Positions 1 to 13,425 are shown, counted from the stretch's first letter. The stretch: 13,425 nucleotides of DNA from an uncultured Deinococcales bacterium (GCA_964247135.1 CAXTTL010000132.1:1-13425); one strand, 5' to 3'. The notes: generated by a model not told the origin, from the sequence alone. Program-made: numbers and translations.

Positions 1-1173
1 CGCGCCACGCAGTTGGCAGCCAACACGATCAGACGGGTCGGCTTGCGCAAACAAGTCGAAGATCAGATCAGACAACTTTCCTTGCTGCGCGACATCGATC
101 TGGCGATCACCAACAGCCTCGACCTCGAGAGTGTGCTGGCGTACTTTCTCAAAGAATGCGTGACGCAGCTCGGGGTCGATGCCGCCACCGTGGTCTTGTA
201 CCATCCCTCGAGCAACGACCTCGAGTACGTCGCATCAAACGGTTTCAAAGTCGATCCCAAAGGCACGAAACTGCAAATCGGTGAGGGACGCCCAGGGTTG
301 GTTGCGCTCGACCGCAAAATCATGCACATCAATGACCTTGACAAGCGTGTACCGGACACCGAAAGCCAACCGCATTGGGCAATGGAGCAATTTATTTCCT
401 GCTGGTCCATTCCGCTCTGGTCGAGTCACGGCTTGCAAGGCATTCTGGAATTGTTCAGCCGCGCCCGAAGCGATTTTGGCAACAACTGGCAAACGTTTTT
501 GCAAGCCCTCTCGGTCCAAGCCGCCATCGCCATCGAAAACTCGAGACTGTACACCGACCTTCAGGCGGTAAACCAAGAACTTGCCCACGCTTACGACGCC
601 ACCATCGAAGCCTTGTCGGCGGCGATAGACCTGCGCGATCACGAAACCGAAGGTCACAGTCAACGGGTCACGTTGCTGACCACCGAAATGGCAAAAGCGA
701 TGGGTTTGGATGCCAACAGCAGCCTGCAAATGCGCCGAGGGGCGCTGCTTCATGACATTGGCAAACTTGGCATCCCAGACAGGGTGCTGTTAAAACCGGG
801 CAAGCTCGACAGCGCCGAATGGCATTTGATGCAACAACATCCGGTGCTCGCCCACCGATGGCTCTCAAAAATACCCTTCTTGCGCCCTGCCCTCGAGATA
901 CCTTACGCCCACCACGAACGCTTTGATGGCACCGGCTACCCGCTGGGACTCAAAGCCCAAGAGATACCCCTGGCAGCCAGGATTTTCGCCATCGTTGACG
1001 TTTACGACGCGCTGGTCTCCGACCGACCGTACCGCAAAGCCTGGACGCCACAAAAAACCCTCGATTACCTGCTCGAGTTTAGCGGCAAGCACTTTGATCC
1101 CGATTTGATTCAAGTCTTTGTGCGCATCATGGGTGACTCGAGGATTCAAGCGCAACTTGAAAATGCGGTTTGA
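1..1173 (+). CDS. GAF + HD-GYP domain protein (putative cyclic dinucleotide phosphodiesterase), 5' partial
   Basis: The frame is open from base 1, so the true start probably lies upstream of the window. GAF-like region (LSLLRDIDLAIT...AAIAIENSRLY), then HD-GYP motifs D-x-E-T-x-G-H-S, LLHDIGK, HHERFDGTGYP and DRPYRKA. Confidence 0.92.
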   Translation, partial: RATQLAANTIRRVGLRKQVEDQIRQLSLLRDIDLAITNSLDLESVLAYFLKECVTQLGVDAATVVLYHPSSNDLEYVASNGFKVDPKGTKLQIGEGRPGLVALDRKIMHINDLDKRVPDTESQPHWAMEQFISCWSIPLWSSHGLQGILELFSRARSDFGNNWQTFLQALSVQAAIAIENSRLYTDLQAVNQELAHAYDATIEALSAAIDLRDHETEGHSQRVTLLTTEMAKAMGLDANSSLQMRRGALLHDIGKLGIPDRVLLKPGKLDSAEWHLMQQHPVLAHRWLSKIPFLRPALEIPYAHHERFDGTGYPLGLKAQEIPLAARIFAIVDVYDALVSDRPYRKAWTPQKTLDYLLEFSGKHFDPDLIQVFVRIMGDSRIQAQLENAV

Positions 1174-1201
1174 GCGCGAATTGGGTTTTATTGTCTGAAA
1201 A

Positions 1202-1242
1202 GAGCCTCGCCAATTTCTTATCTTGAGAAATTGGCGAGGCTC
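1202..1242. terminator. Probable bidirectional intrinsic terminator between convergent genes
   Basis: Perfect 17-bp inverted repeat GAGCCTCGCCAATTTCT (1202-1218) / AGAAATTGGCGAGGCTC (1226-1242), lying between the stops at 1173 and 1269. Confidence 0.8.
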
Positions 1243-1268
1243 GAGTTTATCCGCAATTTCAAGAACTT

Positions 1269-2963
1269 TTAGAAGCTCAAATCAAACTGCTTGAACATGA
1301 CCGACAACGGTCTGGCATCACCTTTGGCAAAATCGCTGCCGACACCATTAAACGCCTTGACCCGCAACGCCAAGGTGTTGCGACCACGAATTGGCGTCAA
1401 GGTCAACTGATGTTTTTGGTTTTCGCCCGCATGTAAACCCGACCACACCTCGAGCGGTTTATTATTGAACAAAACCGTGATTTCCTGCCCTTCGATTGGG
1501 TTAAACACGTCCAGGTTCAACTGCACAGGTTGGGTGCTCGAGCGCCAAAAACCGACGCTGGATTCCTGCCCCAACGCCCAGCGCACACCATTGGTTTCGA
1601 TATCGGCAAACCCGTGCAACTCGAGGCGTTCGCTGCGGGCGGTTAACGATTTTGTTCCAGCGCTCGGCTCGAGCAGCTTGGCGGCGGCGACAGGCAAGGC
1701 GCAACGGTTCGCCGACACGACCTTCAAATCCTTGGTTTCGGCGTACAGGCGCACGCGTTGCGGGTTGTCTCCGTCCAGCGCGAGTGGAATTTTCAGGCGG
1801 TAATTCTGACCCACCAAACCAAGGCGTGAGGTCATGGATTTGCGGTTGGTCGCGCCGATCACTTCAAAGCGCAGTTTCTCGAGCTTGGGGCTGCTGAGGT
1901 TGACCACCAGGCTGCCCATCGGGTTGGTGTCGGCGCCCAGCACAAACTCCTGATACCCGGTGCCCAGGACAGGTTTTAAGCCTGAATCCTGGCAACCGTC
2001 CTGGATCAGACCGCCCAGGGTCAACGCCCAATCTTGAGGCAGTGCGGATTGGTCCACATCGAGCAAAAACGCCTCCCACAATTGCCAGATCACGACTTTT
2101 GGCGCTGAGGTCTGGTAAATGGGGTCGCGCAAATAATCTTCCATCGGCAACCACGGACCACGCCCAGCCTGCGCTGCGTTGATGACATCGGTGGAGAGGT
2201 TGTAGGGCAAGCCGTACTCGAATGGCCACTGCCGCCCACCTTTGGACGCGGACGACCCGACCAGCACCACCTTGGCATCGTTGCCGCCGAGCAAACCGCT
2301 GCTTGGCGAAAGTCGCTCGAGTTCGTAAGGAATAAAAGCTTCGGGTTTGTATTTTGCCCGCTGTGCTGCGGGCAGGCGCGGCAACAAGCTCGATTCCTGA
2401 TAGGTCTCGGGCGGCATCGCGCGAAGCTTGAAGCTTGCCTTTGGTAAATCCTTGATATCGACGGTTTTACGCACCACATCCGCCACGGCTTTGGCGGCAA
2501 TCAACGCGCCTCGGCTCGAGAAGTGATGGTCCAGACGCTGGTAGACGGGGTACTGGCTTTCCTCTTTGGTTTTTTTGCCTTCCATTAATGGGGTCAGCAA
2601 ATCCACGGCGTTGACACCCTGACCGCGCAGCGCCTCGAGCGCCCGCGCGTAACGGCTGCGCATGGTGTCGGTCAGTGGGAAATCGCTCGGCAGTTCGCTT
2701 TCGTAAACGTGCAGTTTGGCGGGCACGAGCGCGACCACCAATTGAATGCCTTTTTGTTTGAACATGGTGCTGGCTGCGCCGATCAGGTTTATTTTTTCGG
2801 TCATGTCGCTTGATGTTTCGTTCTGGTACGCGCCGTATTCGGCGACATGAAACAACCAACCGTCTTTGCCCTCTGCCACACCCGTTTCCTGAAACTGGTT
2901 AAAGGTTCCAGCAATTGCCAGACCGCCGAACAGCAGTCCGACCAACCACCCAGAGCGCCGCAT
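1269..2963 (-). CDS. AlgX/AlgJ-family SGNH-like O-acetyltransferase with extended C-terminal beta-rich (CBM-like) domains
   Basis: Signal peptide (MRRSGWLVGLLFGGLAIA), GKDGWLF, D-x-H motif LDHHF, nucleophile region VLVGSS and PKVVIWQ. The start overlaps the algF-like stop (TGATG). Confidence 0.82.
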   Translation of the reverse strand: MRRSGWLVGLLFGGLAIAGTFNQFQETGVAEGKDGWLFHVAEYGAYQNETSSDMTEKINLIGAASTMFKQKGIQLVVALVPAKLHVYESELPSDFPLTDTMRSRYARALEALRGQGVNAVDLLTPLMEGKKTKEESQYPVYQRLDHHFSSRGALIAAKAVADVVRKTVDIKDLPKASFKLRAMPPETYQESSLLPRLPAAQRAKYKPEAFIPYELERLSPSSGLLGGNDAKVVLVGSSASKGGRQWPFEYGLPYNLSTDVINAAQAGRGPWLPMEDYLRDPIYQTSAPKVVIWQLWEAFLLDVDQSALPQDWALTLGGLIQDGCQDSGLKPVLGTGYQEFVLGADTNPMGSLVVNLSSPKLEKLRFEVIGATNRKSMTSRLGLVGQNYRLKIPLALDGDNPQRVRLYAETKDLKVVSANRCALPVAAAKLLEPSAGTKSLTARSERLELHGFADIETNGVRWALGQESSVGFWRSSTQPVQLNLDVFNPIEGQEITVLFNNKPLEVWSGLHAGENQKHQLTLTPIRGRNTLALRVKAFNGVGSDFAKGDARPLSVMFKQFDLSF

Positions 2964-3571
2964 CAGCGTGCCTCCGTGGTGTTGCGCACCCAGGTCGTGC
3001 GCAAGGTTTTGGCGTCACCAACCACGATCACGCTGTAAGCAACGTTAGGCTCGAGTTGGATTTCGGGCAGCGGCAGCATTTGCGTGCCAGCATCGACGGC
3101 AAGTTTGATCTTGACCGGATTGACCGCCATCATGTCGTAATGCTCGGGTTGGAGCTTGTTCCAGACGGTCAGCTTACCGTCGCTGGTCTTGATTGACACC
3201 TCAACTTTGGAGAGGTTGTATGCCGACAAGCGCGACTGGGTCAAGCTCGAGGCGCTGCGGTCGGGGTTGACCCACCAGCGCCCAGCCACCAATGCCACCG
3301 AATAAAATCCGCCCGCCTCGAGGGTCAAATTGGTTTTGCTCGCGCCGCTGACCAGGACGTGCGTGCCCTGTTTGAAAATTCGGTACGCACCGGCTTGGGC
3401 AGGTTGGAGTTGTTCTGCCAACGATGCGCCGTCGATGGTGGCGGAACTGGCGTTTGGGGTGGCATTGATGAACCGCACAAATGCCGAGTCGGCTGGGGGC
3501 GCGGGCGTGTAGAGCGGCGGTGCCGCCAGTGCCGTGCCGCTTAAAAATGCCAGTAACCATAATTTTTTCAT
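2963..3571 (-). CDS. algF: AlgF-like O-acetylation accessory protein
   Basis: Signal peptide followed by LYTPAPPADSAFVRFINA, typical of the AlgF N-terminus. It lies downstream of the algI/algJ-like genes. Confidence 0.85.
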   Translation of the reverse strand: MKKLWLLAFLSGTALAAPPLYTPAPPADSAFVRFINATPNASSATIDGASLAEQLQPAQAGAYRIFKQGTHVLVSGASKTNLTLEAGGFYSVALVAGRWWVNPDRSASSLTQSRLSAYNLSKVEVSIKTSDGKLTVWNKLQPEHYDMMAVNPVKIKLAVDAGTQMLPLPEIQLEPNVAYSVIVVGDAKTLRTTWVRNTTEAR

Positions 3572-3615
3572 GTTCTTCCCCTTAGAATTTTGTCTTGTTG
3601 CTCGAGATGGATGTT

Positions 3616-4767
3616 TCAGTTGGACTTTCCGATGGTTGAAGCCTTCAAACTTGGTAAAGCTGCGTCGATGGGTTGGTACAAAAAGCGTTCGTTGAATTCC
3701 CAGATCAAAATTTTCGGCGGCGCATTTTCAAAAGCCGAGTCGTTCAGGTACGCCGTCATGCGGCGCTCAAAGCCCGAACCCTCCTTGGCAAGGTTCAGCA
3801 CCGTCGCGCCCAGCGTTTCTTGCAGCGCCCCGTGAAAATTGCCGCGCAGGCAGTACGAGGTCCCAACCAGCACCACCTCGGCGCTGGGTGTACCCAGCAA
3901 GCCCTGGTTGGCTGCCTCCAGGCTTTTGGTCTGCTCGGGAGCTTCTAAGTCGCTGGCGGGTCGCCAGGGGGCTTGTAGCCCGTCCAGGCTCATCAGGCGA
4001 ATCAGGTCGCCGCTGCGCTCTTGCAGGCTGGCTCGGCTGGTCTTGAAACTGCTGCTGGTCAGGTCGATACCAAGCTTGCGAATGGTCTGTGCCACCGCCC
4101 GCGCCGCGACTCGAGCGCCCGCCGTGTTCCAGTGGGTGTCGGTGCGGTAATACACCTCTTGCTTTTTGGCGGCTGCACCGAGTGCCGTCTCGAGGTGAAC
4201 CACGCTGACCCCGCCGCGCTCGAGGGTATTGGCAAAACCTGCGTAACCTGCCTGCATGTCGCTGGACAACTTCATGCCGAGCAAATGCTCGGGGTGAATG
4301 CGGGCTTTGCTCGGGCTGACCGCCATGACTAATTTGACGCCTCTGGTTTTCAAGGCATTGGATAACCGAATCACCGCCTGCGCTCGGGTCTGCCAGGATT
4401 TGGTGGCATCGGCGGGTTGCTGGAGGTCTTGGGTCAGGTACAGCCAGCCGCCCTGCCCGAGCTGCACCGCATCGTCGGCGCTTTGGAGAAAACGGTAGCG
4501 CAGGGCGTTGACGGTTTGGATCAAATGCTGACGAATCGGCAGGGCATCTGCAAACCTCGAGTTGAAATCTTGAGCCGTACCCGCGCCCATGCCGCGCAAA
4601 GTCAAGGCAGCCAGCACGCCGCCGACCACCAGGGTCAAGCCAAAACCGAGGGCGAACAAACGGTTGAGGCTCGAGGTCTGAGCCTCAATCTTGGAAGGTA
4701 CTTTTTTGGTTATGCGATTGGAACCCGAGAGGAATGGAAATTGAGAGACGGGATTTGAATAAGACAT
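3616..4767 (-). CDS. algJ: AlgJ-like membrane-anchored SGNH O-acetyltransferase
   Basis: N-terminal TM segment, GQGGWLYL, YRTDTHWN (D-x-H), VLVGTSY and PPKILIWEFNER. RBS AGGAGG upstream. Confidence 0.85.
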   Translation of the reverse strand: MSYSNPVSQFPFLSGSNRITKKVPSKIEAQTSSLNRLFALGFGLTLVVGGVLAALTLRGMGAGTAQDFNSRFADALPIRQHLIQTVNALRYRFLQSADDAVQLGQGGWLYLTQDLQQPADATKSWQTRAQAVIRLSNALKTRGVKLVMAVSPSKARIHPEHLLGMKLSSDMQAGYAGFANTLERGGVSVVHLETALGAAAKKQEVYYRTDTHWNTAGARVAARAVAQTIRKLGIDLTSSSFKTSRASLQERSGDLIRLMSLDGLQAPWRPASDLEAPEQTKSLEAANQGLLGTPSAEVVLVGTSYCLRGNFHGALQETLGATVLNLAKEGSGFERRMTAYLNDSAFENAPPKILIWEFNERFLYQPIDAALPSLKASTIGKSN

Positions 4768-4776
4768 GACAACCTC

Positions 4777-6177
4777 CTAAAAACGGAAATACAAGAATGG
4801 AGACGCGCTGCGTGCCGCGACGACCGCCAGCGCCAGCCAGAACACGGGCAGCAACAGACTGCGGCTGAACATGGCGATACGAAACTCGAGTTTGTGCCAA
4901 TGCGGTGCGATGTAACAGAGTGCCAAACCGATTCCCAGGGCGGTCAAACGCTCGGGGGTGGCGACCAGGGCGGCATTGTGGGTGAGTTCCCAACCCCTGA
5001 AACCAAACGCCGCCGCGAACTTTTCCATCGCCTGCCCCGCGTCGCTCGAGATAAAGAAGAAACGCCCCAGAATCACGACCGCCATCATTTTGGGTAGCGC
5101 GTACCAGGCGGGCGGCGCGGGAAGCTTAAAGTGGTCTTTCAAAAAACGCTCGAGCATCAAAAACCCGCCATTCCAAGCGCCCCAAAGCACGAACGTCCAG
5201 TTTGCACCGTGCCACAAACCACCGATCAGCATGGTTGCCATAAGATTTATATAAGTTCGGACTTCAGACTGACGATTGCCGCCGAGCGAAAAATAGACGT
5301 AACGCTTTAAAAAACTCGAGAGCGACAGGTGCCAGCGTTGCCAGAATTCGGTGATGCTGAGCGCCGTGTACGGGTGGTTAAAATTTTCGGGCAGCGCAAT
5401 GCCGAGCATTCCCGCCACGCCGATAGCCATGTCGCTGTAACCGCTAAAGTCGTAGTACAACTGTACCGTATACGCCAGACCGCCCAGCCAGACGTTGGCG
5501 GCGGAACTGGGGTCGCTCGAGGCGAAACAGCCCTGCACCAACGGCGAGAGCGTGTCGGCGATCAACAGTTTTTTGCAAAACCCGACCATAAATCGCATCG
5601 CCCCAGTGCCAAATCCCTGAAGATTGACCTGCGGTGCCAGCAATTGCGGTGCGATCTGCGCTTGGCGCAACAAAGGACCGTTCAGCAATGATGCAAAAAA
5701 CGCGAAGCTGGCGGCAAAGCGCAGTGGGTCGCTCGAGGCGGAGGTTTCTTTTCTCGAGACATCGACCAGGTAGGCGACGGCGTTGAAAACATAAAAACTC
5801 AAGCCCACGGGCAGCAATCCTTGAAGGCTGGCGTTTAGCGGCGCGTGTTGAACCAGCTTTAAGATTCCGTTCAGCGTCTCGAGACCAAATTGCGCGTACT
5901 TGAAATACGCCAGTACCGCCAGGTTCAGGATCACGCCTGCCGTCAGCAAGCCGCGTCTTGAGTTTGGGCTGCTGGCATTTGAGATCAGGCGACCAAAGCC
6001 GTAAGCGCTGGCGGTCACCGCGATCAAGAGTGCCAGAAACCACGGACTCCAAAGACCGTAAAAGACCCAACTGCACAACAGCAATGGTACAAATCTTAGG
6101 CGGGCTGGGGTCAGAAAGTACAGCGCCAAAGTGAGTGGCAAAAACAGCAGCAGGAAGCTGTAGACGGTAAAACTCAT
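4777..6177 (-). CDS. algI: AlgI/DltB-family MBOAT O-acyltransferase
   Basis: Polytopic membrane protein with LPVGLSFY, QLYYDFSGYSDMAIG, ENFNHPY, FWQRWHLSLS, GLWHGANWTF (catalytic His) and C-terminal PFLYFRF. Confidence 0.93.
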   Translation of the reverse strand: MSFTVYSFLLLFLPLTLALYFLTPARLRFVPLLLCSWVFYGLWSPWFLALLIAVTASAYGFGRLISNASSPNSRRGLLTAGVILNLAVLAYFKYAQFGLETLNGILKLVQHAPLNASLQGLLPVGLSFYVFNAVAYLVDVSRKETSASSDPLRFAASFAFFASLLNGPLLRQAQIAPQLLAPQVNLQGFGTGAMRFMVGFCKKLLIADTLSPLVQGCFASSDPSSAANVWLGGLAYTVQLYYDFSGYSDMAIGVAGMLGIALPENFNHPYTALSITEFWQRWHLSLSSFLKRYVYFSLGGNRQSEVRTYINLMATMLIGGLWHGANWTFVLWGAWNGGFLMLERFLKDHFKLPAPPAWYALPKMMAVVILGRFFFISSDAGQAMEKFAAAFGFRGWELTHNAALVATPERLTALGIGLALCYIAPHWHKLEFRIAMFSRSLLLPVFWLALAVVAARSASPFLYFRF

Positions 6178-6227
6178 GCTCGAGTTCCTGAAGTGATGTT
6201 GAAGTCTTGGGAGTTATTCGTTTCCAT
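6174..6227 (-). CDS. Putative 17-aa leaderless upstream ORF (METNNSQDFNITSGTRA)
   Basis: ATG at 6227 lies 6 nt downstream of an extended -10 (TGcTAAGCT). Its TGA overlaps the algI ATG as ATGA. Too short for the ORF track. Confidence 0.45.
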   Translation of the reverse strand: METNNSQDFNITSGTRA

Positions 6228-6285
6228 GACCAAAGCTTAGCATGTGATTTTGACACAAAGAGTAAAAAACATACTTCTATCAAAT
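6228..6285 (-). promoter_or_regulatory. Promoter of the alg-like operon (extended -10 TGcTAAGCT at 6242-6234)
   Basis: TG-n-TANNNT element with AT-rich upstream sequence, homologous without gaps to the promoter at 9903-9960. Confidence 0.6.
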
Positions 6286-6369
6286 ATATCAGATTTAAAC
6301 TCGAGATACCACAATGCGATTCGATTTGATGACGTGTCACAAACGAAAATGTGCTGACTGCACTTGAAG

Positions 6370-6614: not shown

Positions 6615-6665
6615 ACAGAACAATTGTTGATTTTGTGTCTAAGACTTTCTGCTGCAAAATTCCAA

Positions 6666-6710
6666 ATCAAAAGCTCGAGCAACCCCAAAACATCAGGCGT
6701 TCCTCGAGCC
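6666..6710 (-). terminator. Probable imperfect intrinsic terminator after the phosphohexomutase gene
   Basis: The minus strand reads GCTCGAGGAACGCC...GGGGTTGCTCGAGC followed by TTTTGATTT, about 25 nt after the stop codon. Confidence 0.5.
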
Positions 6711-6732
6711 GGTTAAGCTTGTATTTTGCGTC

Positions 6733-8148
6733 TTAAACCTTGAACAATCCCTGCGCCTCTTTCAGAATTCCTGCCACCACCCCAGCGCTTAACGCCTCGC
6801 TGTAAAGCCGCAAAACGGGTTCGGTCCCCGACGCCCTGAACAACACCCAGGCGCTATCGTCGAGTGAGAGTTTCACGCCGTCTTTGCTCGAGCGGCTTTG
6901 AATTTTGTGACCCGCAAATGCTGTTAATCCCTCGAGTTTATGATTGAGGTCTGCCTTGCTGATCGGTCGGGTCAATGTTAAGTCCACGCGGTCATAGGCG
7001 TGAAGTGTGTTCGATTCGCGCTCGAGGTCGGCAAAAATCTCTCCCAAGCCCTTGCCGCTCGCCGCGACCGCCTCGAGCAGCAGCAGTGAATTCAGCAAGC
7101 CGTCGCGTTCTGGAATATGCCCCTGCACGCCCAGACCGCCCGATTCCTCGCCGCCCATCAGGACATTGCCCTCGAGCATCGCGTCGGTGATGTATTTAAA
7201 ACCAATCGGCGTCTCGAGCACCTCGAGTCCGCGAATCGCCGCCATGCGGTCGATCATCTGGGTGGTCGAAACGGTTTTCACAACCCGTCCGCGCAAGCCT
7301 TTGCGGTAGAGGTGATCGAGCAGCACACAAAAAATCTGGTGGCTGCTGAAGTACCCGCCGCCTGGCAGCACCGCCCCAACGCGGTCGGCGTCGCCGTCGG
7401 TGACGGTTGCCACGCTGAGGCTCGGCTCGGAGCGCATGAGCTTCATCAGCACGTCCAGGTTTTGGACAATCGGCTCTGGGTTGACGCCGTAAAACATCGG
7501 GTCGGCAACGCCGCGCACGTTGATCACTTTTAGTTTCAAATCGGCAAATTGCACAAAACGCTCGAGGTAACCCGCACCCGCCCCGCCCATCGCGTCGTGA
7601 AACAAGGTCCCAGCGAAACCGCGCAACACGTTCAGGTCGAGCAATTTGGCAATGTCCCTAAAGTATGCCGCGTCAGGCTCGAGGTTTTGAATGCGGTGAA
7701 GACTTGCGTCAAATGCTGGGGTCGGTTCGAGTTGCTCGAGTTCGGCTTCGATGGCGCTGACAATGGCTGGGGTGGCGCTGCCGCCGTAACCGCCTTTGAT
7801 TTTGTAACCGTTGTAACCCGCCGGATTGTGCGAGGCGGTGATCATCACGCCGCCGCCTGCCGCCAGGTGTTTGACCGCGTGGGACAGCACGGGCGTCGGC
7901 ACAAAACTGTTGGTCAAAAACACTTCAACCCCGTTGGCTGCCATGACCCGAGCGGCGGTTTGGGCAAACATCCGACCCGCAAAACGGGTGTCGTAACCGA
8001 TGACCACCCGAGGATTGCCCTGTTTTTTGAGGTACTGCTTTTTTAAATACTGGGCGTGGGCTTGTGCCACCAATGTCACGTTGGCGCTGGTGAAGTCTTG
8101 GGCGATCAAGGCTCGCCAGCCGTCGGTTCCAAATTTGATGACACTCAT
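6733..8148 (-). CDS. Phosphoglucomutase/phosphomannomutase (alpha-D-phosphohexomutase family)
   Basis: IKFGTDGWR, TASHNP (phospho-Ser), DGDADR (metal loop), GEESGG (sugar loop) and FRASGTEP. RBS AGGA upstream. Confidence 0.95.
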   Translation of the reverse strand: MSVIKFGTDGWRALIAQDFTSANVTLVAQAHAQYLKKQYLKKQGNPRVVIGYDTRFAGRMFAQTAARVMAANGVEVFLTNSFVPTPVLSHAVKHLAAGGGVMITASHNPAGYNGYKIKGGYGGSATPAIVSAIEAELEQLEPTPAFDASLHRIQNLEPDAAYFRDIAKLLDLNVLRGFAGTLFHDAMGGAGAGYLERFVQFADLKLKVINVRGVADPMFYGVNPEPIVQNLDVLMKLMRSEPSLSVATVTDGDADRVGAVLPGGGYFSSHQIFCVLLDHLYRKGLRGRVVKTVSTTQMIDRMAAIRGLEVLETPIGFKYITDAMLEGNVLMGGEESGGLGVQGHIPERDGLLNSLLLLEAVAASGKGLGEIFADLERESNTLHAYDRVDLTLTRPISKADLNHKLEGLTAFAGHKIQSRSSKDGVKLSLDDSAWVLFRASGTEPVLRLYSEALSAGVVAGILKEAQGLFKV

Positions 8149-8202
8149 GATGGTTTTCCTTTGGGATTGAGATTATTCAAGATCGAACTCGAGTGTTGAT
8201 CT

Positions 8203-8589
8203 TCAAGACGGTTGCAGCAAAAGCTTGCTTTTAAACAGGGTCTGCTTGGAGGCTTGTTTGCCAGAATTGAAGGCTGCATGGACGCTCTGGGAGGTTTCAC
8301 CGGTGAACAAAATCGCCATCGAATTGAAAAGCCCCGTCAACTCGAGGATCAAACGCACGGTGTCCGAAATGCCGGTGATGCAAAATTCTTCGTTGGCGTC
8401 GCGGAATCGACCTTGGGCGGCTTGCAGGGCGGCAATGCCTGAAAGATCGATGAAACTGACGCGGCTCAGGTCAACAAAGGTGGGTTGGTCTGTTTGTAGG
8501 GCGTCCTGGAACTGGTTGACGCGGTGCGCATCGAATCGTCCTTCGAGGTTGAGAAAGCGTTGGTTGTTTTGGGTTTGAACTGGGTACAT
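8203..8589 (-). CDS. STAS domain protein (anti-sigma factor antagonist-like), 128 aa
   Basis: Start reassigned to the ATG at 8589 (MYPVQ...), which has RBS AAGGAG at 8601-8596. Motifs LEGRFD, VDLSRVSFIDLSG and VRLILELTGL match the SpoIIAA/RsbV pattern. Confidence 0.85.
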   Translation of the reverse strand: MYPVQTQNNQRFLNLEGRFDAHRVNQFQDALQTDQPTFVDLSRVSFIDLSGIAALQAAQGRFRDANEEFCITGISDTVRLILELTGLFNSMAILFTGETSQSVHAAFNSGKQASKQTLFKSKLLLQPS

Positions 8590-8663
8590 GTTGTTCTCCT
8601 TCAAGGATTGAGCAATTGCGCCTGTGGTTGACGATCTGCCGATATTGGTTTCACCTGACTGGC

Positions 8664-9902
8664 TTACCTGAGTGTCAAGGTAGAATTTCGTAACTTTGCC
8701 GCTCGAGAAGGGCTTGAAAAACGAAGTCTTTGAAAGAGCTTGACGAACTCGGCGGCGACGTCCGAAATCTGAATGTCTGTCGCGGCGCGGTAATTTGCCA
8801 AGCCCAAGCTGGCGGCATGTCCGCTTGGCTCGAGCACCCGCCACAACGCCTCTGCCAAACTCCTGGCGTTTTCTGGTTCAAAAAATTCTGCCTGATAGCC
8901 TTCGTCTTTGATCAAATCTGCCAGGTCGCCAATTTGGGGCATGACTGCGGCGCGGGCGTACTCGCCTGCTTGGTGCAAAACGCCGCTCGAGCCGGTGGTG
9001 CTTTTATAAGGAAAGGCGACCACGCTGCATTGCTCAAAAATTTCTGCCACCTTTTCCTCTGGAACGTAACCGGTAAAGGTGATGTTCGGCACGCGAATGT
9101 ACTTTTGACGGGTGCGCTCGAGGTATCCGGCGGCATTGGGCGAGTCGCTGCCGGCGATCACCAATCGAATGTTTTTATCGTAGCCAAGCAGTATCTGATG
9201 GGCTTCGATCAGACTCTCAATTGTCTTGTAGGTGCCAAACTTTCCAAAGGTCATGACCGTTCGGGTGCTTGGCAGCGGTTTCGGGACCCCAATCGAGAAG
9301 GCGCCGTGCGGTGAGTGAAAAACATTTTTGGCGCGGTACTTGTCTTTTAAAATGTTCACGTAACGCGGCATGGTCGTACCGACCAAACTGCTGCCCAAAA
9401 GGGCTTTGGTGAACAACCAACCCGCCGCCCTGGTGATGCGTTCCATGACGGGGTTGTGACCAAAACCGGCTTGCTTGAAATCGACGGTTTCCATGATGTT
9501 ATGCAGCAACGAAATGCTTGGCGTGCCGAGCACCTGAGACGCCATCGGTGAAAGTAAGCCCAGGGCTGCTGGAATTTTTTGGTCGCCAAAAGACGCGAAT
9601 TGCAAATTGTAGAGCACACCGCTGGCTTGGCTGGCACGCAATGCCGATTGAATTTTAATCAGGCTGAACGGATCGTTGAAACGCCAGACCCGCCGCACCT
9701 CGAGCTTGGGATGCTGAATGCTTTCTGGGAGGTTGGTGACATCTGCCAAAACCGTGACTTTGGCGACTTCTGGCAAATCGAGCAATGCCCGAACCAGGTG
9801 TTCACCGTATTCCGTCAGCGTGCCTCGGCTGGGTGGGAACGCGCTGACCACGCACAGATGAAGGGATTTTGCCGATTGATTTGTTTGGCTGTTGGTTTTC
9901 AT
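8664..9902 (-). CDS. Glycosyltransferase, GT-B fold, GT4-like
   Basis: VVSAFPPSRGTLTEY, FGKFGTYKTIESLIEA, LVIAG, FTGYVPEE and VAFPY...SGVL. The ATG at 9902 is preferred over the TTG at 9908 because of -10 spacing. Confidence 0.88.
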   Translation of the reverse strand: MKTNSQTNQSAKSLHLCVVSAFPPSRGTLTEYGEHLVRALLDLPEVAKVTVLADVTNLPESIQHPKLEVRRVWRFNDPFSLIKIQSALRASQASGVLYNLQFASFGDQKIPAALGLLSPMASQVLGTPSISLLHNIMETVDFKQAGFGHNPVMERITRAAGWLFTKALLGSSLVGTTMPRYVNILKDKYRAKNVFHSPHGAFSIGVPKPLPSTRTVMTFGKFGTYKTIESLIEAHQILLGYDKNIRLVIAGSDSPNAAGYLERTRQKYIRVPNITFTGYVPEEKVAEIFEQCSVVAFPYKSTTGSSGVLHQAGEYARAAVMPQIGDLADLIKDEGYQAEFFEPENARSLAEALWRVLEPSGHAASLGLANYRAATDIQISDVAAEFVKLFQRLRFSSPSRAAKLRNSTLTLR

Positions 9903-9960
9903 GTCCAAACTATATCATGCAATTCTTACAAAAATCTTAAAAAATTCACTTATATCAAAT
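9903..9960 (-). promoter_or_regulatory. Leaderless promoter of the GT-STAS-PGM operon (extended -10 TGaTATAGT at 9917-9909)
   Basis: TG-n-TATAGT lies exactly 6 nt before the ATG at 9902, with no clear SD. AT-rich upstream block. Confidence 0.65.
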
Positions 9961-10033
9961 TTACCAAGTAACACTGGCTTCGTGGTGTTTTGTAACATCA
10001 AAGACTCAGAAAATTTCGACAACGTATCCTCTC

Positions 10034-10170
10034 ATACGGAATTAACGAGAACACTCCGTTATTCCGCTTCGCTCCACAACTCCGTTAACCTCGTTGATTC
10101 CGTACTTTTGCCACTCCCGTTGGTCGGGGGAACAGTCGATAAAGCATGACTGTTCCCCGCAATTTGGTAT
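10034..10170. repeat. Small non-coding palindromic repeat / MITE-like element
   Basis: 15-bp IR TACGGAATTAACGAG (10035-10049) / CTCGTTGATTCCGTA (10090-10104) with 1 mismatch, and an internal direct repeat ACTCCGTTA. Adjacent perfect 11-bp hairpin GGGGAACAGTC (10127-10137) / GACTGTTCCCC (10148-10158). Confidence 0.6.
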
Positions 10171-10354
10171 CATTTCCTGCGGATGAACGATTTGGTGAGC
10201 GTAGACCAGATGGGTTCTTTATCGACTTTGATGCAGGCGCGGCTTGGCAAAGTCAAAATATGACCAGAAAAAAGTGAGGTCACCCTTTGTTGACAGCCCC
10301 CAATTAAACCTCACCATTGGACCACCGACACGTGATGACCAGCATCGATTGGGA

Positions 10355-10480
10355 TTGTTTGCGAAAAAGTTAGGATACGCTCGCTCGAGCTTCACTGCCG
10401 ACGTGTACCGTCACACGTTCGAGGATGAACATCTTGCGGCTGTGCGTTTAAGTGATTTACCAGACTCGAGGCGTTTCTAA
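10355..10480 (+). pseudogene. C-terminal fragment of a tyrosine recombinase/integrase
   Basis: Translation AKKLGYARSSFTADVYRHTFEDE resembles box II (LG[H/W]...T..Y). No upstream H-x-x-R motif or N-terminal domains were found. It points toward the tRNA-derived att site. Confidence 0.6.
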
Positions 10481-10550
10481 AGTGCCCAAATTTCGGTTGC
10501 ACGCCGGTTACACACTTGGAGAACAGATATTTTTGCACCCACTTCTCGAG

Positions 10551-10585
10551 AAATAAAGAAACCCCGCTTAAAACGGGGTTTTCTT
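10551..10585 (-). terminator. Intrinsic terminator downstream of the tRNA 3' end
   Basis: Minus strand AAACCCCG-TTTTAAG-CGGGGTTT followed by CTTTATTT, directly after the CCA. Confidence 0.75.
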
Positions 10586-10630
10586 TGGTCGGGGTGGCGA
10601 GATTTGAACTCACGACCACTTGACCCCCAG
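10586..10630 (-). other. 3' half of tRNA-Pro(GGG): att junction, not an intact tRNA
   Basis: Minus strand CTGGGGG TCAAG TGGTC GTGAG TTCAAAT CTCGC CACCCCG ACCA gives the anticodon loop (GGG), T-arm, acceptor 3' strand and CCA (45 nt). The upstream sequence cannot form the 5' acceptor, D-arm or 5' anticodon stem. Confidence 0.88.
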
Positions 10631-10746
10631 AAGCCAAAGAGGGAAACCGAGAGAATCAAAAGGAGTCTAAAGAGGTCGTTATACACGTATTCTCGAGAAG
10701 TCCCTAAACTCTTGTGACCTACTAGAAACCAGCAAAAACGGGTGCG

Positions 10747-10768
10747 GTTGGTCACGGTGTTGGTCACG
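10747..10768 (+). repeat. Tandem direct repeat, candidate integrase arm-type sites
   Basis: GTTGGTCACG at 10747-10756 and 10759-10768 (12-bp period), about 120 bp inside the att core. Confidence 0.5.
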
Positions 10769-10841
10769 ACTCGAGACAGTAGATATTGATTCTAAAAAAT
10801 TTATCAATGCTACAAGGGTGACGTGTTTCACGCGAGAAATT

Positions 10842-11315
10842 CTAAGTATGAAACTGAGCAGGTACAGTTAGGTCTTGTTTGTAAACTCTAGAACCTGTTG
10901 GACCAAAAATGAATTCAACCTGTACTGGGAATTCTGAGTCAAGATTGGGCGTGTAAAAGTTTTTCACATTCAGAATCAGTTCCGTTTGTCCAGGCTCGAG
11001 AATAAAAGAACCAAAATACTCCATTCTTTCATGCCTCGCTGCTACTAACCGAACTCCTGCAATTTGAACTCTTAAAATAAAAATAAATCCATTCGACATA
11101 TTTACCAAAATAGGTCCTTTATCAGATTCGAGCAATTGAAGTGAGGGCGTGCGAAGATCAGTTCGCATTTGTTCATTTATCTGAACATACCGTTGTGTGT
11201 CGTCAGCATATTTTTTCGTTACTCTCCAAATTGCAACCGCAACAATGACGCTTCCTAGAGTTGATAAACTCGAGATGATTTCCAAAAAGGTTTTCCACAA
11301 AGGAGTGTCAGACAT
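10842..11315 (-). CDS. Hypothetical protein with a single N-terminal TM helix (element cargo)
   Basis: 157-aa ORF in AT-rich DNA, with hydrophobic segment IISSLSTLGSVIVAVAIW followed by a predicted beta-rich region. No family recognised. Confidence 0.7.
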   Translation of the reverse strand: MSDTPLWKTFLEIISSLSTLGSVIVAVAIWRVTKKYADDTQRYVQINEQMRTDLRTPSLQLLESDKGPILVNMSNGFIFILRVQIAGVRLVAARHERMEYFGSFILEPGQTELILNVKNFYTPNLDSEFPVQVEFIFGPTGSRVYKQDLTVPAQFHT

Positions 11316-11389
11316 AGGACGTTTATAATATAGGCTTTGGGGGATAAGTGCTTTTTGGAGTTGAGGGTAACTTAATTCATTGAATACGT

Positions 11390-12310
11390 TTAGGCTTTTC
11401 CTGACCGATGAATCGCTTTTCGACAGGCATCACCACACCATTTGCGTTTTTTTACGTTTTTGTATCCTAAAACAAACCATTTTTTGCATTTTTTGTTTTC
11501 GCACTGCCTAATTTCAATATTTCGAGTCACTGCTTTTGAGAATTGCAACCACAAGGCATCTAAAAGGCTTTCAGGTACGATCATTAAATCCAAGTGCCAA
11601 CTTAACGGCTTGGTTGCGTCCCAAAGTACATTCAGGCGCATGTGGGCTAATCTTTCGTTCAAACTCTCGAGCAGCAAATGACGTGCTGCATGTTCTATGG
11701 TTGGATTTTCTATGTTTTCTGGTAACTCGATCTTTTTGAACTTCAGATTCGGATCGTGTTTTCTTACTACCAGTCGCCCGCTTGGTTGCAATCTCTCAAC
11801 AGATTGAGGGTCTTCAGCATAAATCCATTCCCTACGGTTTGGTGTCAGTTGATGCAGGTAAGCACTTAATCCAGAAGTGTCTTCGTTTCGGAGCAAGACC
11901 CAAATATCAAAAAAGTGTTTCATGTCTCGAATTGCTTGAAGCCATGCTTCAAGCAATTCGCCGACTTCCGCCGCGTTGTGATGCCATACAAAAATGGTTT
12001 TTTCTGGCTCTTTCTGGTTTGAGGCACAATTCTCTGACAGTTTTCTTGCCATGACCCCTGATCGTGGAAACAAGTGTCCAAACCTGCCTGCAAAGGCAAG
12101 AATTGACTTTTCAGTCAGGCTGAGATTGGCGAATTTATCCCATGCAGGGGTTTGCTCGAAAAGCGGAAAAATTCGACTTTTTTGAATTGAACCTGTCCTG
12201 CGAGGCACAAGCACACGGTATTGAATCCCGTCGTCTTTGGATTCATCAGGCATGTCTTGGAACTCGTACCCGTCAACATTGACTGTGCAAACAAAATATT
12301 CGATTGACAT
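11390..12310 (-). CDS. CGNR-type zinc-finger protein, putative DNA-binding regulator
   Basis: C-terminal IRQCENKKCKKWF...RKWCGDACRKAIHR matches the zf-CGNR pattern. Start reassigned to the ATG at 12310, which has RBS AAGGAG (12323-12318). Confidence 0.75.
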   Translation of the reverse strand: MSIEYFVCTVNVDGYEFQDMPDESKDDGIQYRVLVPRRTGSIQKSRIFPLFEQTPAWDKFANLSLTEKSILAFAGRFGHLFPRSGVMARKLSENCASNQKEPEKTIFVWHHNAAEVGELLEAWLQAIRDMKHFFDIWVLLRNEDTSGLSAYLHQLTPNRREWIYAEDPQSVERLQPSGRLVVRKHDPNLKFKKIELPENIENPTIEHAARHLLLESLNERLAHMRLNVLWDATKPLSWHLDLMIVPESLLDALWLQFSKAVTRNIEIRQCENKKCKKWFVLGYKNVKKRKWCGDACRKAIHRSGKA

Positions 12311-12338
12311 CTTTGAACTCCTTAAATCACTTTTGTCT

Positions 12339-12374
12339 ACGGTCAAGTCTATAGTTGACCGTCTTGTTTTGCAA
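12339..12374 (-). promoter_or_regulatory. Sigma70-type promoter with overlapping inverted-repeat operator
   Basis: Minus-strand TTGCAA (12374-12369), 17-nt spacer, TAGACT (12351-12346). Perfect IR ACGGTCAA-N8-TTGACCGT (12339-12362) straddles the -10. Confidence 0.6.
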
Positions 12375-12449
12375 ACCGTCTAAACCTAAAGTGATCTCGT
12401 GTACTCGAGTAAAGCGCGTATCACGCGTTTTTAGCACAAAGGAGCTTGT

Positions 12450-12635
12450 ATGGATAATTTAGAGACTGCACCAGAAGTCCTCAATACGCGCGAACTACAA
12501 AAAATCACACGTCTTGGGCGTGAAAGCGTCCAACAACTTTTCCGAAATGGAACACTGCCAAATCTCGGTAATACAAAACGATTTTTAACGTCTCGAGCAG
12601 CACTGAAACGCTTTCTCGAGCAGGGGCAAAAATGA
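12450..12635 (+). CDS. Excisionase-like small helix-turn-helix protein (HTH_17/AlpA-like)
   Basis: 61 aa with RBS AAAGGAG. EVLNTRELQKITRLGRESVQQLFRNGTLP...RFLTSRAALKRFL fits the Xis-type winged-HTH pattern. Confidence 0.8.
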   Translation: MDNLETAPEVLNTRELQKITRLGRESVQQLFRNGTLPNLGNTKRFLTSRAALKRFLEQGQK

Positions 12636-12838
12636 ACAACAGCGCTGGCAGCTCTTGGCAGGACGAAGACAAACGTCACCTCACTTTCGCGCATGAAATG
12701 GCATTGCTCGAGGGCACAGCACTGCTCGAACTTGCCTTTAAACCCTCGAGCAGTGCGGCGCGTGAGGTGTTGGCGATGGTCGCTCGAGTTTTAAACGCGA
12801 CTAACAAAGCGAGTGAGGCGGGATGCAATGGCGCGTGA
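12632..12838 (+). CDS. Hypothetical protein, 68 aa
   Basis: ATGA overlap with the HTH gene, and overlap with the downstream primase start. Confidence 0.6.
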   Translation: MNNSAGSSWQDEDKRHLTFAHEMALLEGTALLELAFKPSSSAAREVLAMVARVLNATNKASEAGCNGA

Positions 12839-13425
12839 TGACTTGCGAGACGCATTGACAAGCGACTCTAACAGCATTTCCGCAATCCTCGAGAGCCTTG
12901 GCGTTAACACATCACACTTGCCCTTGAAGGGCGGTGTGATGTGTGACCCGCGCCCAGGTCACGAAGAAAGCAATCCTAGTTTTGCAGTGTCTCGAGGTTC
13001 TGACGGCGTGGACTTATGGAATCGGTTCGGTGGTGACGGCAAAAGCGGAAACGGTTATCACCTCTTACTCGAGTTTGGGTACAGCCCAAATGAAGCCGCT
13101 AAGTTTCTGAAAGATCGTGCTGGTATGACGAAACCTTTAAACACTCGAGCACAATCAATCACCAAAGCAGTGAAAGCAGATAAACCTGTGCCAAATTACA
13201 AACCTGTTAGCCTCTTGGTGTCTCAGAAGCTCGAGAAAGCACAGCAAAACTTGGTAGCACTCGAAACCTTGCCCGACTGCTTGACCGCTCGAGGATTTGA
13301 TTCTGCGATGTGTGAACAGTACAAACTTGGATTCGAGAATGACGCTGTGATGATTCCGATTTATCGCGGTGCTGACTTGGTGCAAATCAAACAACGCAAT
13401 CCAAACAGAGAACAACCGCGTTACA
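12828..13425 (+). CDS. DnaG-like DNA primase of a mobile element, 3' partial (absent from the ORF track)
   Basis: Hand translation from the ATG at 12828 stays open to the window end: MARDDLRDAL...CDPRPGHEESNPSFAV...LWNRFGGDGKSGN...CLTARGFD...YKLGF...VMIPIYRGADLVQIKQR...PRY. This resembles a CHC2-like zinc-binding domain plus the start of the primase catalytic core. Confidence 0.78.
   Translation, partial: MARDDLRDALTSDSNSISAILESLGVNTSHLPLKGGVMCDPRPGHEESNPSFAVSRGSDGVDLWNRFGGDGKSGNGYHLLLEFGYSPNEAAKFLKDRAGMTKPLNTRAQSITKAVKADKPVPNYKPVSLLVSQKLEKAQQNLVALETLPDCLTARGFDSAMCEQYKLGFENDAVMIPIYRGADLVQIKQRNPNREQPRY

Follow-up and report, generated by a model that had tools for sequence, protein, structure and literature searches.

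The described systems closest to the one reported here are the highly iterated palindromes (HIPs) of cyanobacteria, HIP1 (GCGATCGC) together with the alternate HIPs (Elhai 2015, PMC4390886; Xu, Lawrence and Durand 2018, PMC5861425). HIP1 has been unexplained for three decades, and the literature that we found treats it in cyanobacteria only. Here we report that CTCGAG is a genuine HIP of an uncultured Deinococcales family: like HIP1, it is short, GC-rich, palindromic and, throughout a lineage, hyper-abundant whether the DNA is coding or not; its sites, in ORFs as well as between them, are kept from genome to genome more often than the background, as reported for HIP1, and related genomes have a low frequency or a variant word. 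Over-representation, genome-wide and clade-wide presence and conserved sites, by which HIPs are recognised, were all found for CTCGAG. It differs from HIP1 in being a 6-mer of Deinococcota rather than a cyanobacterial 8-mer, and in its density (6,663 per Mb, compared with the 300–2,700 per Mb quoted for HIP1 in PMC4390886). CTCGAG is a second and denser case, in an unrelated phylum, and shows that the phenomenon is general.

A second comparison is offered by the DUS of Neisseriaceae and the USS of Pasteurellaceae (Findlay and Redfield 2009, PMC2817400; Frye et al. 2013, PMC3630211), which share with CTCGAG the character of a genome-wide short word that is scarcer in recently acquired DNA and denser under low constraint, with proteome distortion and lineage-specific 'dialects'. 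CTCGAG is a strict 6-bp palindrome at 6.7 per kb. In contrast, known uptake sequences are 9–12 nt long, asymmetric and present about once per kb.

The window, that is the whole 13,425-base stretch of DNA that was analysed, has the following features.

1..13425, strandless (CTCGAG reads identically on both strands): 74 CTCGAG sites arrayed over genes and spacers at 5.5 per kb
1..9971, no strand assigned: core segment with an HD-GYP/GAF gene, alginate-type O-acetylation genes, PGM/PMM, STAS and GT1
7213..7227, no strand assigned: pair of CTCGAG sites 9 bases apart in the phosphoglucomutase gene, an example of in-frame spacing
9972..12400, no strand assigned: low-GC (43.4%), CTCGAG-poorer segment (3.29 per kb)
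12404..12788, no strand assigned: non-coding cluster of 6 CTCGAG sites in 385 bases

An earlier note on this DNA had counted about 74 sites by hand, and the exact count was 74. None of 200 dinucleotide-preserving shuffles reached this number (mean 2.75, sd 1.71, largest 9), and shuffling the synonymous codons of each window ORF gave 7.2 ± 2.3 sites (largest 14, n = 200) compared with 56 observed coding sites. Sorting the sites with an ORF map confirmed that they occur in differing reading frames and in non-coding DNA: 34 were CTC-GAG (Leu-Glu), 17 were xxC-TCG-AGx (x-Ser-Ser/Arg), 5 were xCT-CGA-Gxx (x-Arg-x) and 18 of the 74 lay outside the listed ORFs (8.1 per kb over 2,230 non-coding bases). 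The note had also placed the word in terminator stems, which was weakly supported: a few terminator-like sites do contain it, but most lie inside ORFs, and the number of such sites found by a consensus scan of the window (29, compared with 20.5 ± 5.1 in shuffles) was not significant. The core segment (5.42 CTCGAG per kb) is syntenic in two same-genus genomes at ~85% identity. The segment at 9972..12400, which contains dispersed repeats, a tRNA 3' end-like stretch and two ORFs without a Pfam match, is probably younger DNA in which the word has not yet been filled in; positions 12401–13425 have 11.7 CTCGAG per kb.

The source genome (G000; 5,091,702 bases, 5.09 Mb) contained 33,925 copies of CTCGAG, making it the commonest hexamer at 6.7 per kb, or about one per 150 bases, and occupying 4% of the genome. 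All 297 of the 297 contigs of ≥5 kb had between 2.56 and 10.53 sites per kb, and density was 9.3 per kb in spacers, where it was 45-fold above the base-composition expectation, and 6.5 per kb in genes. The claim that codon bias alone is insufficient was upheld: the excess extended beyond the window and, in the window, survived dinucleotide and synonymous-codon shuffles, and genome-wide, when every protein and its codon usage were preserved, about 3,700 coding sites were expected where 26,681 were observed (seven-fold). A maximal-order Markov expectation was discarded as uninformative because the 5-mers within CTCGAG are themselves dominated by CTCGAG. That codon usage, dinucleotide content, assembly or binning produced the excess is next to inconceivable given these figures, the encoding of Leu-Glu by CTC-GAG in 77.2% of cases (11.4% expected) and the presence of the signal in 19/19 family genomes (separate records) and in records of cultured Meiothermus and Calidithermus. 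Codon usage alone does give a moderate density in some relatives, for example G019 (1.47 CTCGAG per kb; CTC-GAG 31.1% of Leu-Glu compared with 25.7% expected; Leu-Glu O/E 1.06); tested by shuffles and relatives, an artefact origin was not upheld.

The proposal of a lineage-specific, HIP1-like iterated palindrome was borne out across the family, since all 19 of the 19 sampled genomes had 4.3–6.8 CTCGAG per kb, and the enrichment in the family is 27-fold. Enrichment was also found in two further lineages, and a weaker form in the cultured Meiothermus and Calidithermus; our literature search found no published report of CTCGAG iteration in Deinococcales. A 16S gene search of the source genome found none, so that named relatives were used to place its lineage; rpoB was not found in the source assembly, and G011 was used as the stand-in for the family. 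The genus Deinococcus avoids CTCGAG as it would a restriction target, in agreement with the earlier statement that restriction sites are normally depleted. Within a single genus, G253 has 7.0 and G197 0.3 CTCGAG per kb although their RpoB proteins are 86% identical. A whole family with the trait, an avoiding genus and congeners differing about 25-fold thus provide independent contrasts for the cause. Lineages also differ in 'dialect': CCTCGAGG makes up 46.8% of 421 sites in G196 compared with 1.9% in G000. In a fossil-site test, CTT-GAG was 1.77-fold over expectation in the motif-poor G197 and 1.79-fold in the CTCGAG-avoiding G020.

Conservation was measured on alignments of two species, G000 and G005. 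Silent third positions were identical in 92.4% of cases (2,662/2,881) within CTCGAG compared with 69.8% (26,187/37,544) outside, and non-coding positions in 94.0% compared with a background of 84.1%; 1,554/1,970 CTCGAG sites were conserved compared with 46.4% for all hexamers, which ranks the word first of 1,091 hexamer classes. These results show that a DNA-level, site-specific pressure maintains CTCGAG. Existing sites decay about four times slower than silent sites elsewhere, and near-cognate words and CTCGAG interconvert at about six times the rate of identical base changes elsewhere, these gain and loss rates being unpolarised pairwise figures. Transition neighbours were aligned with CTCGAG in 286/1,285 cases, compared with 3.6% for a given transition elsewhere, and transversion neighbours were boosted as much (6.4% compared with 0.98% elsewhere). 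The protective effect is confined to exactly six bases: identity was 91.7–94.6% in the six columns and 79–90% in the flanks, and a regional form of the repair-driven signature proposed in the earlier note was not supported. One-mismatch differences were evenly spread (121 outer, 128 middle, 120 inner), unlike the outer-biased one-base deviations reported by Elhai 2015. T2 and A5 were as protected as the other positions (94.6% and 94.0% identical), and equal constraint at all six positions fits recognition of the whole palindrome.

The rise of about six-fold in exchange between one-mismatch neighbours and CTCGAG is what would be expected if repair of the very-short-patch type, or a biased polymerase, turned near-cognates into functionless CTCGAG, and Vsr repair can indeed make a methylase target commoner (CCWGG in E. 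coli). The Vsr effect is small and limited to deaminated cytosine. T:G repair acts at C/G positions alone, yet T2 and A5 are equally protected; transversion neighbours gain no less than transition neighbours, the genome shows no depletion of one-mismatch neighbours (96–2,216 copies each in G000, where the mean hexamer has ~1,243), and there is no regional drop in divergence around CTCGAG. We therefore regard this explanation as very improbable: in contrast to the Vsr case, the effect covers the whole hexamer, amino acids are altered and neighbours are undepleted.

The pressure for CTCGAG extends to proteins and illustrates the reach of DNA-level pressure over protein sequence. Leu-Glu dipeptides were over-represented in the G000 proteome (O/E 2.39, or 2.4-fold, compared with comparison values of 1.00–1.06), an excess that we put at ~10,000–12,000 Leu-Glu pairs in a single proteome. 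In RpoB, residues were replaced to fit CTCGAG, showing that the pressure is strong enough to swap amino acids. Density inversely tracks constraint, being higher in spacers than in genes and higher in genes than in rpoB (2.3–3.0 per kb compared with 4.6–7.0 genome-wide). Recently acquired genes lack the word, and motif-free islands surround newly acquired methylase genes.

The earlier note had pointed to a cognate or orphan XhoI/TaqI-like methyltransferase, to be sought by co-occurrence with the enrichment. This link was not borne out: no methylase ortholog tracks the enrichment across the genomes searched, in searches that covered the commoner methylase families, with the gamma class sought in genomes other than G196, G253, G197 and G008. 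Six G000 methyltransferase genes were profiled over 18 other family genomes and none was conserved. PF01555, a class that we take to include XhoI/MamA-type enzymes, had no match in the single-contig family genome G011 or in the motif-rich, 96%-complete G196. In G011 the sole C5 gene lies within a motif-free island, and a SacI-family nuclease accompanies the D12 gene; G196 had no PF02086 (D12) match and its only C5 gene lies within a motif-poor island; G008 had no PF00145 (C5 methylase) match. XhoI/PaeR7I-type and MamA-type systems have the same recognition word, and Deinococcus is depleted as for a restriction target, but in the family CTCGAG is enriched 27-fold and PF01555 methylases are patchy and unfound in two motif-rich genomes. 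In G000 itself the word is enriched rather than avoided, unlike the target of a host XhoI-type system, and the XhoI nuclease PF04555 had no match there in a search whose control matched in 0/14 genomes.

The most widely shared methylase candidate adjoins a SacI-family endonuclease and so probably targets GAGCTC; its membership of a SacI-type system accounts for the zero occurrences of that word. The SacI-family nuclease alongside also led us to reject the D12 'Dam-like' group as a vertically inherited orphan that G253 also has. Eco57I-family ORFs (~500 aa, five family genomes) were likewise rejected as a shared TaqI/PaeR7I-sized enzyme; they are mutually 25–31% identical, with one pair at 54.5%, and 5/6 read by their motifs as Type I HsdM subunits.

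A methylation-centred HIP would have each carrier encode some CTCGAG-specific methyltransferase, not necessarily orthologous, with methylated sites serving to discriminate strands, to protect or mark incoming DNA, or to control replication or segregation, and selection keeping them. This would match HIP1 and the alternate HIPs, most of which are reported by Elhai 2015 (PMC4390886) to have a matching methyltransferase, whereas none tracks CTCGAG. The word is a methylation target elsewhere, carrying m5C in Halorubrum (PMC8112702) and being the target of a predicted N4/N6 enzyme of M. smegmatis (Randall et al. 2020, PMC7526240), and both avoidance and enrichment occur within the phylum. The word-poor G197 is nearly without the three methylase families (0 PF01555, 0 PF00145 and a marginal PF02086 match alone), unlike its motif-rich congener G253 (2, 5 and 2 matches, respectively), and non-orthologous methylases could share one specificity. 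Against it stand the unconserved G000 genes and the methylase gaps and island-borne or nuclease-paired genes of G011, G196 and G008, and there is no C-to-T excess at either cytosine (transition differences: 50 at positions 1/6, 59 at 2/5 and 48 at 3/4), which argues against m5C. We consider this explanation rather unlikely. CTCGAG separates an iterated palindrome from a conserved cognate methyltransferase and so bears on the leading HIP1 hypotheses.

Spacing bears on another possibility, that CTCGAG serves as the binding site of an abundant nucleoid or chromosome-organising protein, its high density being maintained by ordinary selection on chromosome structure, a role of the kind proposed for HIP1 by Xu et al. 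2018 (PMC5861425). As reported there for HIP1, conservation holds inside and between ORFs; the whole hexamer is equally constrained, and each of the 1,473 five-kb windows of G000 has at least 1.6 CTCGAG per kb. Yet spacing is near random (gap CV 0.963, quantiles near geometric), and between 12 and 400 bases no period but 3, the codon period, was found; gaps divisible by 3 dominate genome-wide (15,577/33,539). HIP1 has a periodicity at 10–90 kb (Xu 2018), whereas CTCGAG was examined at 12–400 bases. Flanks are near-random beyond ±1, with any one base at 39% at most, and with near-geometric gaps this leaves no REP/MITE-type longer repeat unit around the word. Moreover, at every one of the roughly 34,000 sites selection would have to outweigh amino-acid changes such as those in RpoB, a strength that drive attains more easily. 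An architectural word is thus, in our judgement, unlikely.

The explanation that we favour, and hold tentatively, is that a protein reads CTCGAG and that a gain-biased process linked to DNA exchange spreads it; this takes up the 'protein-bound' signature of the earlier note. A putative dimeric DNA-binding protein would read CTCGAG as a 6-bp palindrome, with no conserved methyltransferase mark, and the word would accumulate because fragments or alleles containing it are preferentially taken up, recombined or retained, by analogy with the DUS/USS of Neisseria and Haemophilus and a recent HIP1 proposal. Density would rise where coding constraint permits and fall once the reader is lost. The phylum of the hosts is naturally transformable, and ComEC (PF03772) was present in 8/8 genomes tested; since the motif-poor G197 and the CTCGAG-avoiding G020 are among them, competence genes are no guide to which genomes carry the word. 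In favour of this explanation are abundance beyond the nulls, hexamer-limited protection, the gain side, the inverse relation of density and constraint, word-free acquired genes, the Leu-Glu excess, the 'dialect', the G253/G197 contrast, ComEC and the lack of a tracking methyltransferase. Against it, the same pattern of conservation would be expected if ordinary selection acted on a structural function, uptake sequences are longer (9–12 nt), asymmetric and sparser (~1 per kb), and the methylase-poor G197 also lacks the word, which fits a methylation link.

A wider version, which we consider doubtful, is that CTCGAG is an ancient, methylation-independent 'self' word across much of Deinococcota, read by a putative protein in DNA exchange, with molecular drive dictating roughly 2% of proteome residues and HIPs being general in bacteria. 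If this were true, the G253/G197 contrast together with the weaker Meiothermus/Calidithermus form could reveal the reader gene, and the cultured carriers of that form (Calidithermus, Meiothermus) make methylome, binding and transformation experiments feasible.

Separately, a search of sequencing runs yielded two, whose word shares were 0.08 and 0.05. In viral contigs at least 127 stretches matched and 78 loci were measured, of which 19 had at least 3 CTCGAG per kb. Most CTCGAG-rich loci among the 78 measured have 60–74% GC, with GAGCTC equally common, and were attributed to codon usage; among the measured loci listed, L239, L274 and L252 alone resemble the family signature.

The window contains exactly 74 copies of CTCGAG, compared to a mean of 2.75 and a maximum of 9 in 200 dinucleotide-preserving shuffles. 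When sorted by frame on the ORF map, 34 of them read as CTC-GAG (Leu-Glu), 17 as xxC-TCG-AGx and 5 as xCT-CGA-Gxx, and 18 lie in 2,230 bases of non-coding DNA; this exact count and sorting thus confirm both the figure of about 74 and the use of several frames that an earlier note had read from the sequence. The 56 coding sites compare with 7.2 ± 2.3 when synonymous codons were shuffled within each ORF. The window corresponds to contig C132 in a genome bin (G000; 5,091,702 bases, 386 contigs, 52.65% GC, 84% complete) in which no 16S gene was found and in which CTCGAG is the commonest hexamer, with 33,925 copies (6.66 per kb or, by arithmetic, 4.0% of bases). Hexamers sharing no overlap with CTCGAG reach ~6,000 copies at most, and the second palindrome, TTTAAA, reaches 3,272. 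The density was 2.56-10.53 per kb across all 297 contigs of at least 5 kb, and all 1,473 5-kb windows of the genome held at least 1.6 sites per kb. As proxies for genes we used 3,738 non-overlapping ORFs of at least 150 aa (long ORFs, not curated genes), which cover 80.5% of the genome and contain 26,681 sites (16,332 in frame 0, 4,167 in frame 1 and 6,182 in frame 2), compared to 2,841-2,981, 275-314 and 520-558, respectively, in five synonymous shuffles that leave all proteins and the codon usage of each gene unchanged. CTCGAG is therefore in seven-fold excess in G000 genes under a conservative null, and the enrichment persists under the codon-shuffled control that the earlier note had proposed. 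The short gaps between proxies (n=1,635; 181,593 bases; 46.3% GC) contained 1,692 sites, or 9.32 per kb, where base composition predicts 0.21 per kb.

In G000 the iteration is confined to the six bases themselves: no flanking base is preferred more strongly than G at -1 (39%) or C at +1 (38%), and GCTCGAGC makes up only 12.5% of sites. Gaps between sites are near geometric (CV 0.963, median 108 versus 103 expected), very short gaps being scarce, and no periodicity other than 3 was detected within 400 bases. Counting from the first stop-codon base, a sharp peak lies at offset 5, where CTCGAG starts in 151 of 3,377 gene proxies, compared to ~35 at neighbouring offsets. One-mismatch neighbours of CTCGAG are not depleted (96-2,216 copies each, the mean hexamer having ~1,243).

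To follow the fate of individual sites, 400 kb of a genome of the same genus (G005) was aligned to G000 (297,649 columns, 85.4% identity). As many as 1,554 of 1,970 G000 sites (78.9%) were intact in G005, compared to 46.4% for all hexamers, and CTCGAG ranked first in conservation among 1,091 hexamer classes, exceeding even those containing ATG. Silent third positions were identical in 2,662/2,881 cases (92.4%) within the word and in 26,187/37,544 (69.8%) outside it, and the difference held when the same codon was compared inside and outside (CTC, 91.8% and 63.4%; GAG, 95.4% and 73.9%; CGA, 88.8% and 61.8%; TCG, 92.4% and 75.5%). Non-coding identity was 94.0% inside CTCGAG and 84.1% outside. 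The six columns of the word were 91.7-94.6% identical and the flanks 79-90%, with a codon rhythm only; protection ends at the edges of the hexamer. Single differences, mostly transitions, were spread evenly over outer (121), middle (128) and inner (120) positions. Of 1,285 transition neighbours, 286 (22.3%; 3.64% for a given transition elsewhere) were aligned with CTCGAG in the other genome, as were 83 of 1,290 transversion neighbours (6.4%; 0.98% for a given transversion elsewhere), both figures being unpolarised. Overall, the results demonstrate a six-base-specific pressure on CTCGAG that works at the DNA level, in every frame and between genes, and that slows loss of the word ~four-fold and raises its exchange with near-cognate words ~six-fold (unpolarised figures). 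Coding constraint opposes the word, its density falling from 9.3 per kb in spacers to 6.5 in genes and 2.3-3.0 in rpoB. A regional repair-driven effect, an origin entertained in the earlier note, is excluded by the sharp edges of the protection. A T:G-type repair bias does not account for the equal protection of T2 and A5 or for the boost also seen for transversion neighbours.

The pressure extends to proteins. In G000, Leu-Glu pairs occur at 15.66 per 1,000 residues, with an observed/expected ratio (O/E) of 2.39 compared to 1.02 for Glu-Leu; the Leu-Glu O/E was 2.33 in G005, 1.00 in G020, which avoids CTCGAG, and 1.06 in G019, a relative whose CTCGAG level is codon usage only. Ser-Ser reached 1.63 in G000 and 1.06-1.14 in comparison genomes. 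Taking a baseline O/E of 1.0-1.23, we infer ~10,000-12,000 extra Leu-Glu pairs in the G000 proteome, equivalent to most of the 16,332 frame-0 sites. The rpoB gene contains 10 sites in G253 and 6 in G196 (both CTCGAG-rich and outside the family of G000), 8 in G011 (a single-contig genome of that family), 1 in G197 (a CTCGAG-poor congener of G253) and none in G020. At conserved Leu-Glu columns of RpoB the carriers just encode CTC-GAG. At variable columns residues are replaced, and proteins are thus rewritten to CTCGAG: column 263 is Leu-Glu in G011 and Ala-Asp in four genomes, column 983 is Leu-Glu in G196 and G253 and LK, RD or IQ in others, and columns 42, 550 and 1013 show the same kind of replacement.

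Among the named relatives of the window phosphoglucomutase, MAGs titled 'Deinococcales bacterium' come first (94% and 92% identity), ahead of Deinococcus, Meiothermus, Calidithermus and Truepera. All 18 other genomes of the same family (five genera sampled; most are incomplete bins, 57-94%) carry 4.3-6.8 CTCGAG per kb. Three CTCGAG patterns were seen in a survey of the phylum covering 301 genomes in one order and five families, in which family and genus codes are internal labels and g7, g9 and g13 were matched to named genera by inference. Genus g7 (taken as Deinococcus; 100 genomes) mostly has 0.01-0.2 sites per kb, and the Thermus-like g9 has ~0.9, the same as the reversed control word. Two outliers within the Deinococcus family are G253 (24,536 sites in 3.5 Mb) and G196 (13,562 in 3.8 Mb). 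The survey also lists G265, an unpublished genome, which was left out of all claims. As a codon-aware check, the share of Leu-Glu pairs encoded by CTC-GAG was compared with its expected share, alongside the Leu-Glu O/E. In G019 the share was 31.1% (25.7% expected; O/E 1.06), so its CTCGAG level is codon usage only, and G020 avoids the word (0.3% versus 7.7%). G253, sampled over 26.5 kb only, shows the full trait (77.6% versus 10.9%; O/E 2.47), as does G196 (75.7% versus 20.4%; O/E 1.92), in which the word has a lineage 'dialect', the extended 8-mer CCTCGAGG, accounting for 46.8% of 421 sites compared to 1.9% in G000; 352/421 sites read CCTCGA on one side (67% GC genome; loci L207, L220-L224). 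With one ~20 kb region examined per genome, loci from cultured Calidithermus (65.9% versus 26.9%; O/E 1.72) and Meiothermus (47.8% versus 16.7%; O/E 1.57) carry the trait in a weaker though genuine form. Weak carriers available in culture are Calidithermus chliarophilus DSM 9957, C. roseus NBRC 110900 and Meiothermus taiwanensis DSM 14542. G197 is without it (6.2% versus 8.1%; 0.24 per kb), its RpoB being 86.2% identical to that of G253; at least one close relative has the pressure switched off.

A function centred on methylation of CTCGAG is a serious rival, which we consider unlikely, and the earlier note had suggested a search for an orphan XhoI/TaqI-like methyltransferase. G000 encodes 4-5 PF01555 genes, 2 C5 genes, 1 D12 gene, 3 long Eco57I-family proteins and 1 HsdM-like protein; a search of G000 for the XhoI nuclease (PF04555) gave no match, although the search control matched nowhere either. 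For six of these genes, orthologs were sought in every other sampled genome of the family (n=18).

Orthologs of six G000 methylase genes in 18 family genomes
C36 type: G002, G007
C14 type: G001, G012, G018
C207 type: G006, G009, G017, G018
C4b type: G005 and G012 (internal stops in both), G017
C178 type: G001, G002, G007
D12 type: G001, G002, G003, G005, G011, G018

G011, a single contig with 23,515 sites, encodes 1 C5 gene, 1 D12 gene, 1 Eco57I-family protein (1,111 aa) and a 527-aa protein read as HsdM, and gave no match to PF01555; neither PF01555 nor PF02086 matched in G196, nor PF00145 in another genome, G008. In G197, PF01555 and PF00145 were without match and PF02086 had one marginal match only. 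No methylase thus tracks the trait, whether among the six G000 genes in 18 relatives or by PF01555, PF00145 and PF02086 elsewhere, and the XhoI/TaqI-like link finds no support among those profiled, PF01555 being unmatched in both G011 and G196. Methylation as m5C is further opposed by the G000/G005 alignment, where neither cytosine has an excess of C-to-T change. The CTCGAG methylase of M. smegmatis is reportedly a Type II N4/N6 enzyme by REBASE prediction (PMC7526240); we take it to belong to the PF01555 class, which has no match in two motif-rich genomes.

CTCGAG is lacking from the C5 genes of both G011 and G196 and from the PF01555 gene of G000 contig C189. All three genes lie in motif-poor, low-GC islands, which marks them as recent arrivals; the pressure is absent from newly acquired genes. 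At C189 4433-5699, a solitary PF01555 methyltransferase of 258 aa occupies a 1.27-kb CTCGAG-free stretch (40% GC) that is a recent single-gene insertion within otherwise motif-rich DNA. Two long Eco57I-family ORFs of G000, of 929 aa (C192) and 844 aa (C21), matched no NCBIfam model; the N-terminus of the former presumably resembles MmeI-type fused restriction-modification enzymes. G197 (2.3 Mb, 5 contigs) is nearly devoid of common DNA methyltransferase families.

Since no methylase tracks the trait and the force per site outweighs amino-acid changes in a core protein, we tentatively favour the view that a protein reads the CTCGAG palindrome and that copies build up through a gain-biased process linked to DNA exchange, a possibility to which we give less than even weight. 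The proposed mode resembles that of uptake sequences and recent proposals for HIP1, the highly iterated palindrome of cyanobacteria (PMC13756078). In that work HIP1 was profiled phylogenetically by PGLS or BayesTraits. A preprint of 2024 (10.1101/2024.09.10.611283) reportedly carries a HIP1 proposal of this kind. The uptake gene comEC was found in 8/8 genomes examined, non-carriers included, so it does not separate carriers from non-carriers. An architectural function of CTCGAG is another serious rival to the protein-read palindrome, and an unlikely one in our judgement. In the literature, supplements aside, we found no paper on iterated CTCGAG or any highly iterated palindrome in Deinococcota. 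The sections seen of Elhai 2015 do not mention CTCGAG, Deinococc or Thermus and quote a HIP1 density of 300-2,700 per Mb (PMC4390886), and Xu et al. 2018 describe HIP1 conservation and a 10-90 kb periodicity (PMC5861425).

The D12 methylases of G253 and of the Deinococcales family are 73-75% identical, comparable to RpoB (75%). In G000 and G011 the D12 gene adjoins a 364/365-aa ORF with a match to the SacI endonuclease family (PF09566). In G000 this match reaches 29.7 bits against a cut-off of 19.3; in G011 it reaches only 16.6 bits.

G000 C320 ~1061-2985 (L120 407-2331): D12 adenine methyltransferase (277 aa) and 364-aa SacI-family ORF

From its sequence the pair is best read as a putative SacI-type (GAGCTC) system, to which we attribute the near-absence of GAGCTC in the family (0 copies in the 5.09 Mb of G000 and 3-25 in 15/18 other genomes). 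Many further palindromes are near-absent from G000, namely GGGCCC (1), CGGCCG (3), AGGCCT (4), CGTACG (5), GGATCC (7), CCGCGG (11) and CAGCTG (15), and GGCC has only 380 copies. This scarcity implies that G000 has long been exposed to many restriction systems.

The window also holds a gene cluster and several dispersed repeats.

1269-9908, minus strand: alginate O-acetylation-like gene cluster

Its members are two AlgX/AlgJ-like SGNH proteins, an AlgF-like protein and an MBOAT AlgI-like protein, then a phosphoglucomutase/phosphomannomutase, a STAS protein and a GT1 glycosyltransferase, a predicted gene content that suggests an acetylated exopolysaccharide in this Deinococcales lineage. An inverted repeat at 6381-6596 (34-nt arms, 88% complementary, 148 nt between) lies in a region, 6380-6640, parts of which are found in dozens of copies in five genomes of the same genus; the repeat is probably of the REPIN/MITE type. 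Two more dispersed repeats, at 10030-10175 and 10545-10630, have many copies in related genomes. The segment 10584-10630 is 100% identical in several genomes and resembles a tRNA gene at its 3' end, but tRNA calling gave no tRNA there; this segment may be what is left of an integration site next to the low-GC segment 9972-12400.
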